DNA of 58,125 bases from IMG/VR virus record IMGVR_UViG_3300035703_000105, positions 1-58,125 of that record; one strand, given 5' to 3'. The position numbers were made by a program, and so were the translations under genes. Positions 4,332-40,307 of the stretch are shown piece by piece. The stretch is from a virus (lineage: Duplodnaviria; Caudoviricetes). Position 1 is the stretch's first letter. Every line of letters starts with the position of its first letter. A model generated the notes under the pieces. That model was given only the letters and a program-made list of their open reading frames with translations, did not search any database and was not told the origin of the DNA.

Positions 4332-5285
4332 ATGACCACCAACACTAACAACCAAAACAAACTACCAAAGGTTCCTGACAAAGCGCTTGAAGCTTTGAAA
4401 ACTGGTATCCAATCTGTTCTTGACTCTAAAGATTGGACTGGTTTTCTTTCTGCTATCAGGCAGATCCATGACTACAGCTTCAACAACAAGCTGTTGATTA
4501 TGCTTGCGCAACAACAACGTGGCTGGGCGTTCAGCCCATTTGTTGCAGGCAGGACTAAGTGGAACGAGAAGTTTAATCGGCAACTTAAGGAAGGAGAATT
4601 TACCAAACCGATTTGGATTATTGCGCCAGTGTTGATTGACAAGCGCGACGAGAACGGCAATGTCATTCGGAAGCCTGACGGTACGTCCGACAAGATTGCT
4701 ATCCGGTTCCGTGGCGTCAAAGTTTACGATCACCATCAAACCCACGGGGATCCGATCCCCGAACCAGACACGTCAACTATGATGGCACAGCTTGATGGAG
4801 ACATCTCTGGAGCTGTCATGGATGGAATGATTGCTTTGGCAAAGCAGCGTCAGGTCGAGACGCAGCTTGTTGATCAAAATGAGCTAGGACATGCGCTTGG
4901 CCGTTGTTGGTTTGCCAACCAAGGTCGCGCCAGCAAGATTGAGATTTCTAAAGATCTCAATCAAGCAACACAAATTAGTGTGATGAGCCATGAACTTGGT
5001 CACGCTATCTTGCACAACCGTGATGAGTATCAAGAGCATGATTCGTCCTCGATCAAAGAACTAGAAGCCGAGTCAGTTGCGTATCTTGTTTGTTCTTATT
5101 ACGGTTTGGATCTTGGTGGTCGTAGCTTCCAGTACATTGTTCATCACAACACTGCATCTGATGATGTTGTAGCTGATCTACTTAAGTCTGGTGATCGAAT
5201 TTTCCGTGCTTACCAGGAGATCATTACAACTACTGATCAGTTTATGCGCCAGGGGCAAGCTCAGAAGGAGTTGGTTGTAGCATGA
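4332..5285 (+). CDS. ArdC-like antirestriction protein (ssDNA-binding N-terminus plus zincin/ImmA-like metallopeptidase)
   Basis: YSFNNKLLIMLAQ N-terminal motif; HELGH...ELEAESVAYLVC metallopeptidase motif. Confidence 0.8.
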   Translation: MTTNTNNQNKLPKVPDKALEALKTGIQSVLDSKDWTGFLSAIRQIHDYSFNNKLLIMLAQQQRGWAFSPFVAGRTKWNEKFNRQLKEGEFTKPIWIIAPVLIDKRDENGNVIRKPDGTSDKIAIRFRGVKVYDHHQTHGDPIPEPDTSTMMAQLDGDISGAVMDGMIALAKQRQVETQLVDQNELGHALGRCWFANQGRASKIEISKDLNQATQISVMSHELGHAILHNRDEYQEHDSSSIKELEAESVAYLVCSYYGLDLGGRSFQYIVHHNTASDDVVADLLKSGDRIFRAYQEIITTTDQFMRQGQAQKELVVA

Positions 5286-6803: not shown

Positions 6804-6992
6804 ATGTCTGAACTTTCCTCCGCCGCGCAGGCGGTGATTACTGCCAGCAACTGTGCTGGGTCTCGAATCGTGCAGTTGCACATTGCCGCCGCCCTGCGAG
6901 CCGCTGCGGATGAGGTATGCCTCCGTTGGGCTGAGCTGAAACATCCTGCAGATGTTTTGAACACCATCGCGGACGAGCTTGAAGCCCAGTAG
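6804..6992 (+). CDS. GC-rich hypothetical protein
   Basis: MSELSSAAQAV...IAAALRAAAD...IADELEAQ; its stop is part of a TAGT-N7-ACTA site. Confidence 0.65.
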   Translation: MSELSSAAQAVITASNCAGSRIVQLHIAAALRAAADEVCLRWAELKHPADVLNTIADELEAQ

Positions 6993-7137
6993 TCACCTTC
7001 ACTAAAAGCTAAGCCGTGTGTGGAACCACGGCTCTATGCTTCCAGCTCAGACCAAGCTTCACGAGGCAAGGCCCTGACCGTTGCTGGTTACGGGTAACGC
7101 CCCATGAAAAATCATAGGAATCAACACTCTATCACTG

Positions 7138-7434
7138 ATGAAAGGGTTTACCGCCAGTAAGCAAAAGGAAAAGCAAGCGACTTACTGGATCTCTTGCTAT
7201 ACCAAAGACAATGAAGATGAACCTTTTGGTGTCACCAAAAAACAACTGACTTACAAATCTGGTCAAGATAAGAACAAGTTGATCCTGACTTACTGCACTG
7301 AGCTGATGAAGATCAACCACTCAATCTGGGAGATCCTTGTTCATCAAGGACCATCGGAAACTCCAGAGCACGGAGATCAGGTCACGCATCGGTTGAGCCG
7401 TGAGAAGTTTCGGGGCTCGACAACCATCATTTAG
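7138..7434 (+). CDS. Hypothetical protein
   Basis: ORF track. Confidence 0.55.
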   Translation: MKGFTASKQKEKQATYWISCYTKDNEDEPFGVTKKQLTYKSGQDKNKLILTYCTELMKINHSIWEILVHQGPSETPEHGDQVTHRLSREKFRGSTTII

Positions 7435-7449
7435 TCCTTTATAATTTCT

Positions 7450-7960
7450 TTGGTTCTGCAGACCACCAGTGGCCACTGGTTCGTCATCTTCAGGGATGAC
7501 ACTCGATATCACAGAGTGGAAGCTGTGAGATCGCACCGATGAAGCAACGAGAGGAGTAAGGGCCGACCCTTGCTTAAACCCCGTGAACGGGATCCTCTCT
7601 AGCTTCAAAGTAATCCGCCAGTCTGGATAGGACGGTACTTCTGACCGCGATACCGAAGCCATAGTCCAGGTCGGTGTGCTAAGTTCCACCAGTTACGGTT
7701 TGCTAAAGCTTCTTGTTCCTTGCTATAAGGAACACCACGATAAGTTAATTGTGTCATGGCAGTTGCCACATACAATTAACTATAGGAATTTGTAGTAATT
7801 ACTACAGTTTGTGGTGCAACACTAAGTATTAAATTAGTGTTAAGTTATGGGGCGCAACCGCACCTTCAGCTACAAGGCACGGCTGTTCACTTACCAGCAG
7901 AAGGAAACCACAAAAACTTCTGCTCCCCAGGGCCTGGCGTGGTTCTTCTTCGACCCGTTG
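7450..7960 (+). ncRNA. Candidate large structured ncRNA (~500 nt)
   Basis: TATAAT at 7440-7445; more than 10 hairpins with nested long-range helices; G-U wobbles favour the + strand; no credible ORF. Confidence 0.65.
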
Positions 7961-7997
7961 TTATAATAAGATCTATGTGCTTTCCAAGAACGCCCCA

Positions 7998-8225
7998 ATG
8001 GCTGTATTATCTAAACCAAAGATTATAGGAACAGTCTCCTGTGATTCCGGTACAATCGCTATTACTGATCCAGCTTATCTCCAAGTATCAAAAGAAGATA
8101 CTGTTCGGATGCCTGAGTGGAATCTGTTTACTTCTTTTAACACTGAAGTTGGTGATGGCGAATTTGTTGTCTACGCACAGCGCGATAGCTTAGGCCATTT
8201 GCGTCGTGTCATCATTGAAATCTAA
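7998..8225 (+). CDS. Hypothetical protein
   Basis: IGTVSCDSGTIAITDPAY...GDGEFVVY; TATAAT upstream at 7962. Confidence 0.6.
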   Translation: MAVLSKPKIIGTVSCDSGTIAITDPAYLQVSKEDTVRMPEWNLFTSFNTEVGDGEFVVYAQRDSLGHLRRVIIEI

Positions 8226-8371
8226 TGCTTTACACAACTGTCTTCCTTGTTTGGCTGGCTGTTAATATTATTTTCTTGTTTAACTTTCATCTTGCTGCTG
8301 GCTACTTAGTCATTGTTAATCTCATCTACGCAGTAGCTGCTATGCTGATTGACGATCCAGCTGAAGACTGA
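8225..8371 (+). CDS. Small two-TM membrane protein (not in ORF track)
   Basis: MLYTTVFLVWLAVNIIFLFNFHLAAGYLVIVNLIYAVAAMLIDDPAED; TAATG overlap. Confidence 0.45.
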   Translation: MLYTTVFLVWLAVNIIFLFNFHLAAGYLVIVNLIYAVAAMLIDDPAED

Positions 8372-8654
8372 ATCAGTGACTGACCTCCTCGACCCCAGGC
8401 GGGAACCTAACCGCTGGCTTGCTGCAATGTTTGATCACCTGCTTGATGTGGGTGATCCAGATTCGATTGAATCTCTTCGGTCTGGTTACTATCAACTATG
8501 TAATGTGATTGAACCGGGTCTGATTGATTCGATTTTTGAACCATGGATTGAAGCATATCTTCAAGGACTCCAGGATGAAAGTCAACCCGGAAACACGCAA
8601 AGTATTGCTCGTCCACCAAAGGAGCTAGCGGATCTTCCGGAACCACTGGAATGA
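8349..8654 (+). CDS. Hypothetical protein
   Basis: ORF; overlaps the 3' end of an opposite-strand gene. Confidence 0.5.
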   Translation: MTIQLKTESVTDLLDPRREPNRWLAAMFDHLLDVGDPDSIESLRSGYYQLCNVIEPGLIDSIFEPWIEAYLQGLQDESQPGNTQSIARPPKELADLPEPLE

Positions 8655-9108
8655 TCCGTCCCATCTCATAGATCGGATCTCCTCCATAGGGAGGACGGTG
8701 CCACCAGAAGGCTTTATCAATGACATCAACGTTCCAATCTGGGTGGTAGCGCAACCAACGGGACCAAGCACGAAACTGTGCATCAGGTTTCTTGGATGTG
8801 CAATCTAAAAACAATGCGTCGCCAGGTTCTAAGTTCCATCTCATTAACAGGACCTGGCGAAATCCTTCTGTAATTGTTTTGATTCCGCTGCGACCACTAA
8901 TTTGATTGTGAAGATTGACGCTGCGTTTATTCTTCTTCCTTTTGTCCCAATCGTTTAGTTGACGCTTTGATTTACTGATTGCAAACCCAACCTTCCACAC
9001 CCAACGACCAGCATTAAATTCTTTAATTGGTGTTAAGAACACTTTGCAATACTGGTCGTTGATTTTAAACGTAGTAGTGCTACGCTTGCGGCATACTCGA
9101 TATGTCAT
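8407..9108 (-). CDS. Hypothetical protein
   Basis: Long ORF with globular composition. Confidence 0.55.
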   Translation of the reverse strand: MTYRVCRKRSTTTFKINDQYCKVFLTPIKEFNAGRWVWKVGFAISKSKRQLNDWDKRKKNKRSVNLHNQISGRSGIKTITEGFRQVLLMRWNLEPGDALFLDCTSKKPDAQFRAWSRWLRYHPDWNVDVIDKAFWWHRPPYGGDPIYEMGRIIPVVPEDPLAPLVDEQYFACFRVDFHPGVLEDMLQSMVQKSNQSDPVQSHYIVDSNQTEEIQSNLDHPHQAGDQTLQQASG

Positions 9109-9111
9109 GGT

Positions 9112-9393
9112 TTGGACGACCTTATTGATACCATTCAACGTGACCCAGATCTATGGGAGATCGTTGAAAAGTTAAAGAACCCAGATGAGGATCTGGAAGA
9201 TTTCCTGTTCAGCTTAGCTCATATGCTGTCCATTGAGTTCCAAGAACTTCATAAGACAGATCTTTCTGACAAGCTTGCATCTTTGTTTGGAGGTCTTCCA
9301 GATAAGGCCGTGATTATGGCACCGTCGTTGCTGCACATTGCTTTGGATATTTTCCTAATGCGTGCTATCCCACAGATTGAGGAGGTGTCTTGA
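9112..9393 (+). CDS. Hypothetical protein
   Basis: ORF track. Confidence 0.55.
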   Translation: MDDLIDTIQRDPDLWEIVEKLKNPDEDLEDFLFSLAHMLSIEFQELHKTDLSDKLASLFGGLPDKAVIMAPSLLHIALDIFLMRAIPQIEEVS

Positions 9394-9629
9394 CAATGCA
9401 GCGCGGTTATGTTCTTTGTAATACTGATCTATCGAAAGTTCTTTGCCTCAGTGGTGACCGATCTGGTATCCAGTTGAAAGAAGTGGATAGTACAAAGGTA
9501 CTGAACAAAGCTATTTGTTTGTCGGACTTGACAGAGATCAAGAACATCTTAAGGATGTTTAAGGATCAGGAGCTGACTGGCGACCTTGAGATTGTTAACG
9601 TGGCTCGTCTCTACAAAAAGTTCTTCTAA
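9390..9629 (+). CDS. Hypothetical protein
   Basis: GGAGG RBS upstream; precedes DNA polymerase. Confidence 0.55.
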   Translation: MTMQRGYVLCNTDLSKVLCLSGDRSGIQLKEVDSTKVLNKAICLSDLTEIKNILRMFKDQELTGDLEIVNVARLYKKFF

Positions 9630-9641
9630 AGTAATCTCATT

Positions 9642-11489
9642 ATGAGACTGGTTGTAGACCTTGAGAGCAATGGGTTGCTGCCCAAGATGGACACGATCCA
9701 TTGCATTGTTTTGCGTGACCTGGACACAGATAACGTTATCAGTTGTGCTGATCAGCCTGGCTACCACAGTCTTGAGACTGCTTTGGATTTCATTCGGGAA
9801 GCAAAGTTACTTGTTGGCCACAACATAATCAAGTTTGATTTACCTGCCATACGAAAGATTTATCCAGGGTTTCAATTACGTCCTGATGTTTCTTTCTATG
9901 ACACGTTGGTGGTTAGCCGCGTTATGTGGCCTGAGTTAGAACCTATTGACTCCAGTAAGTTCTCTCATATTGAAAAGAAATACTTTGGTCGGCATAGTTT
10001 AGCAGCTTGGGGTGAACGTCTTAACGTTTCCAAGATTAAATTTAAAGAAGAAAGTAAAAAAGATAATGATGAGATAGAAGATGTATGGGCTCAATGGACA
10101 GAGACCATGCAAACATATTGTGAAGGTGATGTACTTGTCAGTACTAAACTATATGAATACCTTTCTTGTCAAGAGATTGATGATCGTTGCCTTGAACTAG
10201 AGCATGAATTTGCTTTGGTCATGGCACAGCAAGAAGGATTTGGGTTTCCCTTCAATGAAAAGGCAGCCTATGCGTTGGTCAACACGCTCAAAGCTCGACG
10301 CTCTGAGCTTGAGGATCGACTCCAAGAAACTTTCCCGCCAATCCAGGAGGAACGCTGGTCGAAAAAAACTGGCAGGCAACTTAAAACAAAGGTTACGGTA
10401 TTCAACCCTGGTTCCAGACCACAGACTGCTGAACGTCTTAAGGCCAGGTATCCAGAGATTGAGTTTGAATCAACTCCTAAAGGTGGCCCCAAGGTTGATG
10501 ACGATGCTCTTGAAACTCTGGGTAAAAAATATCCAGAGGCTAAGCTCTTGGCTGAATACCAACTGTTTAACAAGATACTTGGTCAAGTTGCTGAAGGTAA
10601 AGAAGCATGGTTAAAGCACTGCCGCCTTTATAACGATGGCCGTATTCATGGCGAAGTTATTACTAACGCTTGCATTAGTGGCAGATGCAGCCACAAACGT
10701 CCCAATATGGCCCAAGTCCCCAGTGTTGGTCACGCTTTTGGAGCTGAGTGCAGGGCTCTGTTTTACGCTCCTGATGGTTGGGTGCTGGTTGGTGCTGATG
10801 CTTCTGGACTAGAGCTGAGAGCCCTTGGAGCATGGCTTGCCTACTTTGATGACGGTGAGTACGCCAGGCTGGTCAGCACGGAAGGTTTTGACATTCACAC
10901 GCACAACGCCAGCCTCTTTGGGATCTATGATGGCCAGGGAGAAATCACTAAAGCAACACGTGATCTTTCGAAGCGGCTTATTTATTGCGTCCTCTATGGT
11001 GGCGGCGCAAAGAAAACTGGATCAATCATTGCACCGGATCTCAGTGAAGACGGACAGTATCGACAGGGTAAAAAAACTATTGATACTTTCTATCAGAACC
11101 TTCCTGCTATTAAAGAGCTTAAAGATCTCATCGAGAAACGCATTACGGAGCGTGGTTACCTTACTGGCATTGACGGCAGACGGTTACAGATTCGCTCTAA
11201 ACATTCAGCACTCAACCAACTTCTCCAGTCAACAGGGGCCGTATCAGTAAAGAAAGCTACAACAATTCTGTATGATGATTTAACAAATGAAGGTTTAGTG
11301 TTTGCAAAAGATTGGGGATTTGTTGCACATGTGCACGATGAATACCAAGCTTTAGTTAAGCCTGAGTACGTTGATCTTTATACCAAGTTAGCTATTGATT
11401 CTTTCCGTAAATCAGGAGAGTACTTTCAACTTAAATGTCCTTTAACTGGTGAAGCAAGGACAGGTAAAAATTGGATGGAGACTCACTAA
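9642..11489 (+). CDS. polA: Family A DNA polymerase (T7 gp5-like) with 3'-5' exonuclease
   Basis: DLESNGLL, GHNIIKFD, DASGLELR (motif A), RDLSKRLIYCVLYG (motif B), HVHDEYQ (motif C). Confidence 0.97.
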   Translation: MRLVVDLESNGLLPKMDTIHCIVLRDLDTDNVISCADQPGYHSLETALDFIREAKLLVGHNIIKFDLPAIRKIYPGFQLRPDVSFYDTLVVSRVMWPELEPIDSSKFSHIEKKYFGRHSLAAWGERLNVSKIKFKEESKKDNDEIEDVWAQWTETMQTYCEGDVLVSTKLYEYLSCQEIDDRCLELEHEFALVMAQQEGFGFPFNEKAAYALVNTLKARRSELEDRLQETFPPIQEERWSKKTGRQLKTKVTVFNPGSRPQTAERLKARYPEIEFESTPKGGPKVDDDALETLGKKYPEAKLLAEYQLFNKILGQVAEGKEAWLKHCRLYNDGRIHGEVITNACISGRCSHKRPNMAQVPSVGHAFGAECRALFYAPDGWVLVGADASGLELRALGAWLAYFDDGEYARLVSTEGFDIHTHNASLFGIYDGQGEITKATRDLSKRLIYCVLYGGGAKKTGSIIAPDLSEDGQYRQGKKTIDTFYQNLPAIKELKDLIEKRITERGYLTGIDGRRLQIRSKHSALNQLLQSTGAVSVKKATTILYDDLTNEGLVFAKDWGFVAHVHDEYQALVKPEYVDLYTKLAIDSFRKSGEYFQLKCPLTGEARTGKNWMETH

Positions 11490-11644: not shown

Positions 11645-12964
11645 TTACCTGCTGATTTCTTCCCAGTCCATTGATGCGTAGATGTCAGCGCCAGCTGCAT
11701 CAGATGCCACAGCTAGGGTTATTTCATAAGAAGATCCAGTTAAACCGTTGCGTTCTAATTGAAACGAAAACAAAGCTTCTTTTAAAATGTCAACAGCTTG
11801 ACTACCTTGGTTTGATCCATTGGTAAAACCAGAAGCAAGAATGCGACCACCTGCAAAGCTTGATCCTGTTCGGTTGTATTCCACAGCTGAGTTAGTTCCT
11901 GCACTAACCCAGGTGCCGCCAGTGGTTGTACCGCTTGCAATAACCTGCCAGTTGTAGTTGGCGTTATTGGTAATCCCCATTATGGATAGCGCAGTAAGAA
12001 TTACAATTGCATCTAGAAAATTAGGAGATGCTTTTAAGCGTAAAGAAATTATTGGATAGTAGGTATTGACAGTTGTTAAATCTCTTGGGGATCCAATTGG
12101 AGTTTCAATAGATTGTTGTAAGCCACGTAATTCATAACCGCCTTCTGAGATTGCAGTAGAACAAACTTGTTTTAATGTGCTGGACGTAGCAGTTGTTCCT
12201 GTGTTTTCAATCTCGTAACGAAGAGGTAAAGATGCAGTAGTAATATAAGTGCTTGCAATTAAGTTGGCATGGTTAAATGAATGGCAATGTATGAACTGCC
12301 CGTTAATTATAAAGCCAACGCGAACAGTTCCTAAACCTAACCACTCAATATCCATCCAAAGGATTTGAGATTTAGAAGGATCTAATGTTAACTTAGAAGG
12401 ACCTGTTCCATCTAACTTATCAACATTCCAGTTGGCTTGAGTGATTACTGATTCGGTAACAACGCCAGTGACTAAACTTCTTTCAACAAAAGCAACACTG
12501 TTCGCACCTGTCCCATCAACCTGAAAATAGATTCCATTATCAGCACCATAGTAACCACAACGTTGCCTGAGGTTAGCCTTGGCTGCATTGAATGCAAACG
12601 TATTCAGAACAAGTAAAGATTTACCAGGCTGATAAGAAAATACTTTTGTTGTTTCACGAATAACTTTAGAGCCAGAAGTAGTGGTTACGTTTAAGTTGAC
12701 CAATCCTTCATTAGCACTGAAGACCGCAGCACCGCCTGATGCTGTTTGTGTTTCCCACAGACCGTTATCTTTATAACGATGGCTGGAGTCAAATAAGGTT
12801 AAAGGATTAGAAACACGTTGCCTACCAAAAGCATCTACTGCTGTAGATGTTGTGCCACTTGCTGTAGTTTGCGAAAGGCTTACGTTAAGTGGGCGTGTTC
12901 CCCAGTTTCTTACTTCAACTACTTCATATCTATTTAGATCGTCAGCTTCAATTACGGTTGCCAT
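11645..12964 (-). CDS. Putative virion structural protein (beta-rich)
   Basis: DAFGRQRVSNPLTLFDS...YQPGKS...DIEWLGLGTVRVGF pattern typical of cyanophage structural proteins. Confidence 0.6.
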   Translation of the reverse strand: MATVIEADDLNRYEVVEVRNWGTRPLNVSLSQTTASGTTSTAVDAFGRQRVSNPLTLFDSSHRYKDNGLWETQTASGGAAVFSANEGLVNLNVTTTSGSKVIRETTKVFSYQPGKSLLVLNTFAFNAAKANLRQRCGYYGADNGIYFQVDGTGANSVAFVERSLVTGVVTESVITQANWNVDKLDGTGPSKLTLDPSKSQILWMDIEWLGLGTVRVGFIINGQFIHCHSFNHANLIASTYITTASLPLRYEIENTGTTATSSTLKQVCSTAISEGGYELRGLQQSIETPIGSPRDLTTVNTYYPIISLRLKASPNFLDAIVILTALSIMGITNNANYNWQVIASGTTTGGTWVSAGTNSAVEYNRTGSSFAGGRILASGFTNGSNQGSQAVDILKEALFSFQLERNGLTGSSYEITLAVASDAAGADIYASMDWEEISR

Positions 12965-40138: not shown

Positions 40139-40224
40139 GGGAGCGTGGCGGAATTGGTATGCGCTGCGGACTTAAAATCCGCTGGTCTTCGACCTTGTGG
40201 GTTCGAGTCCCACCGCTCCTACCA
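40139..40224 (+). tRNA. trnL: tRNA-Leu(TAA) with encoded CCA
   Basis: GGGAGCG/CGCTCCT acceptor, GCGGA-CTTAAAA-TCCGC anticodon arm, long variable arm, TTCGAG T-loop. Confidence 0.95.
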
Positions 40225-40225
40225 T

Positions 40226-40299
40226 CGGGATATAGCGCAGCTTGGTAGCGCAACTGCTTTGGGAGCAGTGGGTCGCAGGTTCGAATCCTGCTATCCCGA
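40226..40299 (+). tRNA. trnP: tRNA-Pro(TGG)
   Basis: CGGGATA/TATCCCG acceptor, ACTGC-TTTGGGA-GCAGT anticodon arm, TTCGAAT T-loop. Confidence 0.95.
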
Positions 40300-40307
40300 T
40301 TGTCAAA

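Follow-up and report, generated by a model that had tools for sequence, protein, structure and literature searches.

A promoter-led conserved RNA, a minus-strand DUF4278 gene and a separate conserved fold in a densely folded stretch of an uncultured phage contig

Does a densely folded and apparently gene-free stretch of a phage genome encode one large non-coding RNA? For positions 7440-7960 of a 58,125-bp viral contig (the window, i.e. the whole stretch of DNA analysed; estimated completeness 68%), the original prediction was a single + strand molecule of ~500 nt, made almost entirely of helices. The stretch is instead a mosaic of a promoter-led RNA (B), a minus-strand DUF4278 gene and a separate conserved fold (C), arranged as follows.

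7417-7445, + strand: promoter P1, TCGACA, 17-nt spacer, TATAAT, 11/12 consensus matches
7452-7610, + strand: core RNA B, 159 nt, covariance model R1 with 20 distinct members
7605-7757, minus strand: DUF4278 gene, 50 aa, IF17-like, ATG at 7757-7755, stop codon the complement of 7605-7607
7743-7842, minus strand: 5' region of the DUF4278 mRNA, with hairpins at 7817-7842, 7791-7806 and 7743-7781
7846-7965, either strand: element C, 29 distinct sequences
7959-7967, + strand: promoter P2, extended -10 box TGtTATAAT, ahead of a 75-aa ORF at 7998-8225

Composition of the stretch and its phage

The stretch 7440-7960 is indeed better folded than its shuffles, with z -5.16 on the + strand and -5.91 on the minus strand. 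Taken separately, 7452-7610 (+) gave z -4.06 (0/200 shuffles), 7611-7757 (+) z -0.91, no better than chance, and 7846-7965 (+) z +0.12; on the minus strand, 7740-7850 reached -28.6 kcal/mol and z -4.89 (0/200 shuffles). The stretch is not gene-free, as 7605-7757 holds a conserved 50-aa DUF4278 gene on the minus strand, so that ~150 nt of the proposed non-coding RNA are coding DNA. None of the predicted pairs in this coding middle part is altered on both sides. The helix proposed at 7714-7734 falls within the DUF4278 coding sequence, and the proposed AGTTAATTGT/ACAATTAACT hairpin spans its start codon. The supposed closure GCACCGA/TCGGTGT, the pseudoknot CTGGA/TCCAG and the domain CACCAC/GTGGTG likewise fail, their partners being altered without compensation among 7 homologues. 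The 3' domain at 7846-7965 is independent of the rest and occurs in 42/115 sequences, one copy per locus and mostly without B, and whole genes sit between the parts in L002, L099, L005 and L116. What is left of a molecule that was to be nearly all helix is a well-supported RNA of only 159 nt (7452-7610), beside a middle part of 150 nt that is opposite-strand coding DNA. A transcript from promoter P1 may physically cross all parts, because no terminator-like site was found on the + strand of 7452-8100. A densely folded "gene-free" stretch may conceal a 50-codon gene on the opposite strand.

Homologues were collected by several routes. The 98-aa ORF upstream of B (7138-7434) as query led to 8 related loci, a 25-letter motif to 8 viral stretches, and a 22-letter motif to 16 metagenome stretches, 16/16 of which match covariance model R1; a 5'-end motif added 4 more divergent B members. 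The 115 sequences in which C and the DUF4278 gene were counted comprise 114 loci and the window. Two B motifs, scanned as exact patterns, had 0 matches each in 185,579 species genomes, i.e. no cellular or prophage copy at that stringency, and blastn of 7000-8000 against isolate phages gave no match.

By resemblance of its DNA polymerase, virion protein and GP88-like gene, the window appears to belong near Synechococcus phage S-EIVl, a freshwater cyanophage. Identity of the family-A DNA polymerase (9642-11489, +) to those of isolate phages does not exceed 44%, S-EIVl being among the matches at 41%; related contigs carry a GP88-like gene with 66% identity to the S-EIVl gene that adjoins the S-EIVl DNA polymerase. 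The virion structural protein (phrog_1645; 11645-12964, minus strand) shares ~70% identity with proteins from T4-like cyanomyoviruses and from Puniceispirillum phage HMO-2011; it is far nearer to isolates than the remaining genome, which suggests a shared or exchanged module. Elsewhere in the window, two adjacent tRNA genes, Leu(TAA) and Pro(TGG), lie at 40139-40300 (+; Rfam gathering score), and a 317-aa ORF at 4332-5285 (+) has weak matches to the anti-restriction family phrog_7245 (E 2.4e-7) and to a metalloprotease family. Across the window, the cumulative GC skew is lowest at 9021, within a broad trough (7000-9500) just upstream of the DNA polymerase gene; this minimum, present despite the + strand genes there, could mark a replication origin.

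Promoter P1 and the conserved RNA B

The TATAAT at 7440-7445, just after which the predicted RNA was to begin, is the -10 box of the 11/12 sigma-70-type promoter P1, whose -35 box lies within the 3' end of the 98-aa ORF. The assignment is by sequence, from hexamers at 16-18 nt spacing in a conserved position. Promoter P1 precedes B in every locus, and no other + strand promoter was found ahead of C. In 18/19 homologues, exactly 6 nt separate the end of a TAnnnT hexamer from the invariant GGTTC, which places the probable start of transcription at G7452; in the 19th the hexamer is CAGAAT, combined with a perfect TTGACA at a spacing of 17 nt. Downstream of this start, B consists of the following parts, all on the + strand.

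7452-7463: invariant single-stranded 5' end GGUUCUGCAGAC, 6 nt after the -10 box
7465-7480: hairpin P1, GGCC loop
7483-7500: optional hairpin P2, UUCAGG loop, in the MFE fold and outside the 38 counted pairs
7504-7533: hairpin P3, loop AGUGGAAG (RGUGGAAG across members)
7540-7545 with 7602-7607: helix P4, in the MFE fold, read by eye and outside the 38 counted pairs
7549-7554 with 7594-7599: helix P5
7555-7574: hairpin P6
7580-7591: hairpin P7

The three hairpins are thus followed by a P4/P5 stem that opens into a three-way junction of P5, P6 and P7. The hairpins foreseen at 7465-7480, 7483-7500 and 7509-7528 are present in the MFE fold of 7452-7610, as is the multibranch TGAAGC..GAGAGGA/TCCTCTC..GCTTCA, which covaries; among these elements, covariation was counted, and found, for all but the optional hairpin 7483-7500. 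Helix P4 was left out of the pair count because the model alignment sets its 3' strand in differing registers.

Comparative evidence for B is strong on every measure used. Pairs were counted on 16 sequences at first and then on 20; in the model alignment of the 20 distinct sequences, 97.9% of 713 cells are paired and 24/38 pairs are altered on both sides. By comparison, 0/500 shuffles reach any of the five measures, and slid controls are 40-50% paired. There are 41 G-U against 1 A-C, and the consensus-fold energy is -44.8 on the + strand versus -35.2 on the minus strand, with the + strand favoured in 16/16 sequences. Compensatory changes above both the shuffled and the slid controls, together with this G-U strand asymmetry, mark B as a conserved structured RNA. 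The expectation of a structured, promoter-driven + strand RNA outside the Rfam families therefore holds for B, where the covariation looked for is found. The G-U sign of the + strand, read over the whole stretch in the prediction, stands within 7452-7610; in C, G-U and A-C counts are near balance (36 vs 28).

B varies in length from 138 to 198 nt across homologues (including 138, 140, 143, 145, 146, 159, 160, 162, 166, 167 and 177 nt) and yet contains ~60 invariant nucleotides, many of them unpaired. This exceeds the needs of a plain stabiliser and suggests a specific partner. A pseudoknot between the 5' UUCUGC of B and GUGGAA in the loop of P3 is possible: both sides are invariant, and the sole change in the P3 loop, G to A in the L005 type, preserves the UUCUGC/GUGGAA pairing. 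Within the window, GUGGAA in GGAA-type loops occurs only in the hairpins at 7012-7033 and 7509-7528. No expression platform or alternative fold was found for B. Two ORFs that overlap B, 7450-7542 on the + strand and 7321-7689 on the minus strand, were rejected as genes on the variable length of B and its compensatory substitutions. A role of B as terminator of the DUF4278 gene was also rejected, since B is not adjacent to DUF4278 in type II loci and its minus-strand fold is weaker. With a fixed predicted start site, a length of ~140-200 nt and a portable context, B is a clean test object.

The DUF4278 gene and the folds C and A

The minus-strand ORF at 7605-7757 is judged coding from variation at third codon positions without stops rather than from the narrow Pfam margin. 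Among 36 distinct DUF4278 sequences compared pairwise, differences at the three codon positions number 7022/4842/13363 with no in-frame stop, and the gene is gap-free across 7 aligned homologues. The match to Pfam PF14105, at 25.9 bits (E 1.3e-5), exceeds the cut-off of 25.3 by a narrow margin; the L099 homologue, at 24.5 bits, falls just under the cut-off, and 4/13 database relatives carry a precomputed PF14105 match. The peptide, with the motif LTYRG..Y...WWNLAHRP..L.YRG..Y.P..TGG, was first noticed on the opposite strand, upstream of the GP88-like gene in relatives. It has tblastn matches in 64/115 sequences and none among 50,697 isolate phage records. The gene lies tail to tail with B, its stop codon inside the 3' strand of helix P4.

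DUF4278 is described as a domain of the glutamine-synthetase inactivating factor IF17 by Klaehn et al. 2018, whose account also has cyanobacterial DUF4278 genes usually behind glutamine riboswitches and mentions short Prochlorococcus IF17-like proteins without the C-terminal part needed for GS binding (PMC6212724). The phage protein, which has only 50 aa and whose likeness to IF17 (gifB) is known from the domain match, is possibly the product of an auxiliary gene acting on host glutamine synthetase. None of the few papers matched on this subject concerns, by title or abstract opening, a phage-encoded glutamine synthetase inactivating factor. If the phage protein inhibits host GS, it would be a new kind of auxiliary metabolic gene, and the convergent promoter-leader cassette would be a compact RNA-level control of host takeover.

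The 5' region of the DUF4278 mRNA (7743-7842) may also be structured on the minus strand (z -4.89). Its hairpin at 7743-7781, which is the AGTTAATTGT/ACAATTAACT hairpin, buries the DUF4278 AUG in an inner stem; 7743-7842 shows a few compensatory changes, and a minus-strand role is putative. Both types of glutamine riboswitch, type 1 (glnA RNA, RF01739) and type 2 (Downstream-peptide, RF01704), are tied to cyanobacterial DUF4278 genes in the account of Klaehn et al. (PMC6212724), and in the window the DUF4278 gene is flanked by two conserved RNA folds. However, RF01739 and RF01704 match neither strand in the window, 7743-7842 and C included, nor in six related loci. Unlike the glutamine riboswitches, B is on the strand opposite the DUF4278 gene, at its 3' end; C lies upstream of the gene, yet often occurs in loci without an adjoining DUF4278 gene.

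Element C accounts for the predicted TGGGG/CCCCA domain at 7848-7929, which is real and covarying. A closing stem surrounds hairpins 1 and 2 to form a three-way junction, hairpin 3 follows, and the loops of hairpins 2 and 3 pair with each other.

7848-7852 with 7925-7929: closing stem of C
7854-7886: hairpin 1
7896-7924: hairpin 2
7930-7934 with 7952-7956: hairpin 3
7906-7911 (AACCAC) with 7939-7944 (GUGGUU): kissing loop

Across the 29 distinct sequences, 96.7% of cells in C are paired and 25/34 pairs are altered on both sides. Pairing reaches 100% in the kissing helix, where 4/6 pairs covary; the variants counted are AGCAGC/GCUGCU, AGCUAC/GUAGCU, AACCAC/GUGGUU and AACGAUG/CAUCGUU, and L117 has a fifth, AGCGAU/AUCGCU. 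The strand of C may be either one, with energies of -33.1 (+) versus -34.3 (-) and with 29 of the 36 G-U (vs 28 A-C) coming from a single invariant pair. C abuts promoter P2, whose TATAAT is kept in all aligned window-type relatives. Lacking a -35 match, promoter P2 was missed by the consensus scan; many relatives have a TTGACG -35 box within hairpin 3 of C, 18 nt ahead of the TATAAT, and there C finishes at the -10 box, which in the window is TGtTATAAT. A + strand ORF over C (7847-7966, 39 aa) was rejected, as relatives show indels of 7, 6 and 2 nt.

A further structured element, A, lies upstream of promoter P1.

6993-7137, + strand: element A, structured 5' UTR of the 98-aa ORF, 12 distinct homologous sequences, 26 loci
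7012-7033, + strand: hairpin of A, loop UGUGGAAC
7138-7434, + strand: 98-aa ORF of no known family, 8 relatives with 58-96% amino-acid identity

The loop UGUGGAAC has GUGGAA in common with the P3 loop of B. Both sides of the last hairpin of A change among the 12 distinct relatives, as read directly from the sequences, and the 3' end of A is GUAACGCCC, immediately before the AUG. The 98-aa ORF has no match in Pfam or PHROG, and in type II loci only its ~10 first codons are left between A and promoter P1.

B, C and A are conserved folds without an Rfam model. The whole window gave two tRNAs only against Rfam 15 at the gathering score, and 6950-8100 at E<=10 gave one chance sR55 snoRNA match, with E 4.8 and 13.3 bits where the gathering score is 35. 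At E<=1 there was no match in six related loci, and no Rfam 15 family was found for 7440-7960, including GOLLD, ROOL, manA, wcaG, group I intron, RNase P and tmRNA. The GOLLD, ROOL, manA, wcaG and PhotoRC motifs reportedly came from Weinberg's 2010 comparative genomics of phage and marine DNA, the same discovery route as that of B and C, and their Rfam 15 models do not match B or C. A later viral screen, by Fremin and colleagues, is said to have drawn on the IMG/VR collection, which is also the source of the homologues used here. It is described as covering >5 million viral sequences and predicting 10,006 structured RNA candidates (Fremin et al. 2023, PMC10690425); like B and C, these are folds that are conserved and covary in intergenic DNA of phages or metagenomes, and B or C could be among them. 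The locus thus brings together B and C, with very strong comparative support, and the structured leader A within 1 kb in an uncultured freshwater cyanophage group.

Genomic context and possible roles of B

The DNA polymerase gene lies 1.1-2.6 kb downstream of B on the same strand in the window and in 17/17 related loci that reach far enough. The conserved block ends at helix P4, and beyond it different loci carry unrelated sequence, the first feature after B being:

GP88-like ORF at 48-300 nt: L006, L009, L018, L019, L102, L110, L111
C, then a GP88-like ORF: L032, L105
+ strand Asp/Asn hydroxylase-like ORF at 32 nt: L116
convergent DUF4278 gene: the window, L002/L103, L004, L005/L108, L099, L113, L115, L118

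Directly 3' of B, L117 has a U-rich tract, UUCUGUUUUU; elsewhere none was noticed by eye. The promoter-plus-leader cassette is optional: B is carried by only 4/80 loci collected via the GP88-like gene, and the S-EIVl genome has no match to model R1, B being absent there. The interval from B to promoter P2 is a hot spot of gene insertion, with these cases:

L099:4613-5149, opposite to B: Asp/Asn beta-hydroxylase, PF05118, E 8.9e-44
L116, ~2097-2624, same strand as B: Asp/Asn beta-hydroxylase
L005:2707-3255: 182-aa ORF, weak, sub-threshold PCO_ADO match
L002:3704-3976: 90-aa ORF, no known family

In our preferred reading, to which we give about an even chance, B serves as a cis-acting 5' leader, and the portable promoter cassette to which it belongs heads the replication operon. 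The cassette would head a + strand transcription unit running to the family-A DNA polymerase gene, and B would condition either the transcript it leads or the transcribing polymerase, whether by shielding the 5' end or by rendering elongation resistant to stops. Acting on transcript or polymerase, B would be independent of which gene adjoins it. Transcription from promoter P1 would thereby pass the structured stretch after B; in the window, its transcripts would run antisense over the DUF4278 gene and through C, lowering DUF4278 expression. Several observations count against such a leader, among them the number of invariant nucleotides and the failure to find an expression platform or alternative fold. 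The transcript from promoter P1 need not reach the window's downstream genes, because promoter P2 already serves them, and the U-rich tract after B in L117 would suit a discrete small RNA.

The closest analogue may be the put RNA of phage HK022, a structured phage RNA in an early transcript of the host polymerase that acts on the same complex whatever genes follow. B is likewise promoter-proximal and indifferent to the downstream gene; an effect on the polymerase is conceivable by analogy. The put RNA has ~70 nt and two hairpins. Set against put by description, B, with 138-198 nt, three hairpins and a three-way junction, is unlike it in size and fold. A published list of RNA structures that suppress pausing includes HK022 put (PMC9974457).

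Alternatively, B could be a discrete ~160-nt trans-acting small RNA, made early from a strong host-type promoter, whose invariant loops (GGCC, RGUGGAAG, CCGA) and 5' end would bind some other RNA or a factor of host or phage origin. The near-consensus promoter P1, the many invariant unpaired nucleotides, the lack of a co-directional gene directly after B in eight distinct window-type sequences and the U-rich tract of L117 all speak for such an RNA. It nevertheless seems unlikely, as B in the window has no terminator-like site after it, which speaks against an independent small-RNA gene, and as ORFs start 32-300 nt downstream with no recognisable promoter between in at least 8 distinct sequences.

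The neighbourhood of B raises the question of metabolite sensing, since its neighbours include genes tied to nitrogen or 2-oxoglutarate (DUF4278/IF17-like and Asp/Asn hydroxylase genes) and cyanobacterial DUF4278 genes are normally behind glutamine riboswitches in the account cited above (PMC6212724). A riboswitch gating elongation from promoter P1, with glutamine or 2-oxoglutarate as a conceivable ligand, would also fit the multi-helix junction and the ~60 invariant nucleotides. We consider it quite improbable: RF01739, RF01704 and other Rfam riboswitch models do not match, a terminator or start-site-masking platform was not found, B is tail to tail with DUF4278 and not upstream of it, and the commonest co-directional gene, the GP88-like one, has no known metabolic link. 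A joint reading of the locus, which we hold to be very doubtful, makes B a new class of sensing leader on a mobile freshwater-cyanophage promoter cassette, with C as a second switch. B would read nitrogen status (glutamine or 2-oxoglutarate) or act on host RNA polymerase, and would decide whether transcription runs on from promoter P1, so that the IF17-like inhibitor gene would be silenced by antisense and the DNA-replication operon fed; C, its kissing loop overlapping the -35 box of promoter P2, would add a second RNA switch to this node.

There is also little probability left for one stable large non-coding RNA of ~500 nt spanning 7452-7960, which as a single folded unit is largely refuted. 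Promoter P1 is the sole + strand promoter upstream of C with no terminator between, B and C adjoin also in L032/L105 and L117, and the stretch as a whole folds better than its shuffles (z -5.16). Against this stand the codon periodicity of the central 150 nt on the minus strand, central helices without both-side changes (z -0.91), and modules that occur independently, with genes inserted between them in L002, L005, L099 and L116. A role of the folds at the DNA level, for instance in a replication origin or a palindromic operator, is hardly credible: the GC-skew minimum at 9021, the equal overall folding of both strands, the palindromic hairpin P1 of B and TCTGCAGA, and the balanced G-U and A-C counts of C would fit, but B has 41 G-U against 1 A-C and a more stable + strand in 16/16 sequences, its stems vary freely with pairing kept as a protein operator would not permit, and the kissing-loop covariation of C is hard to explain in duplex DNA.

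The GP88-like gene that often follows B has a small structured leader of its own. In L018:1430-1500, L050:1450-1500 and most of L020-L097, its 5' UTR contains a short hairpin whose stem comes in two compensated forms, GGAC...GUCC and CGUC...GACG; an invariant UUAAACU comes next, then CAACUCAA repeats and then the AUG.
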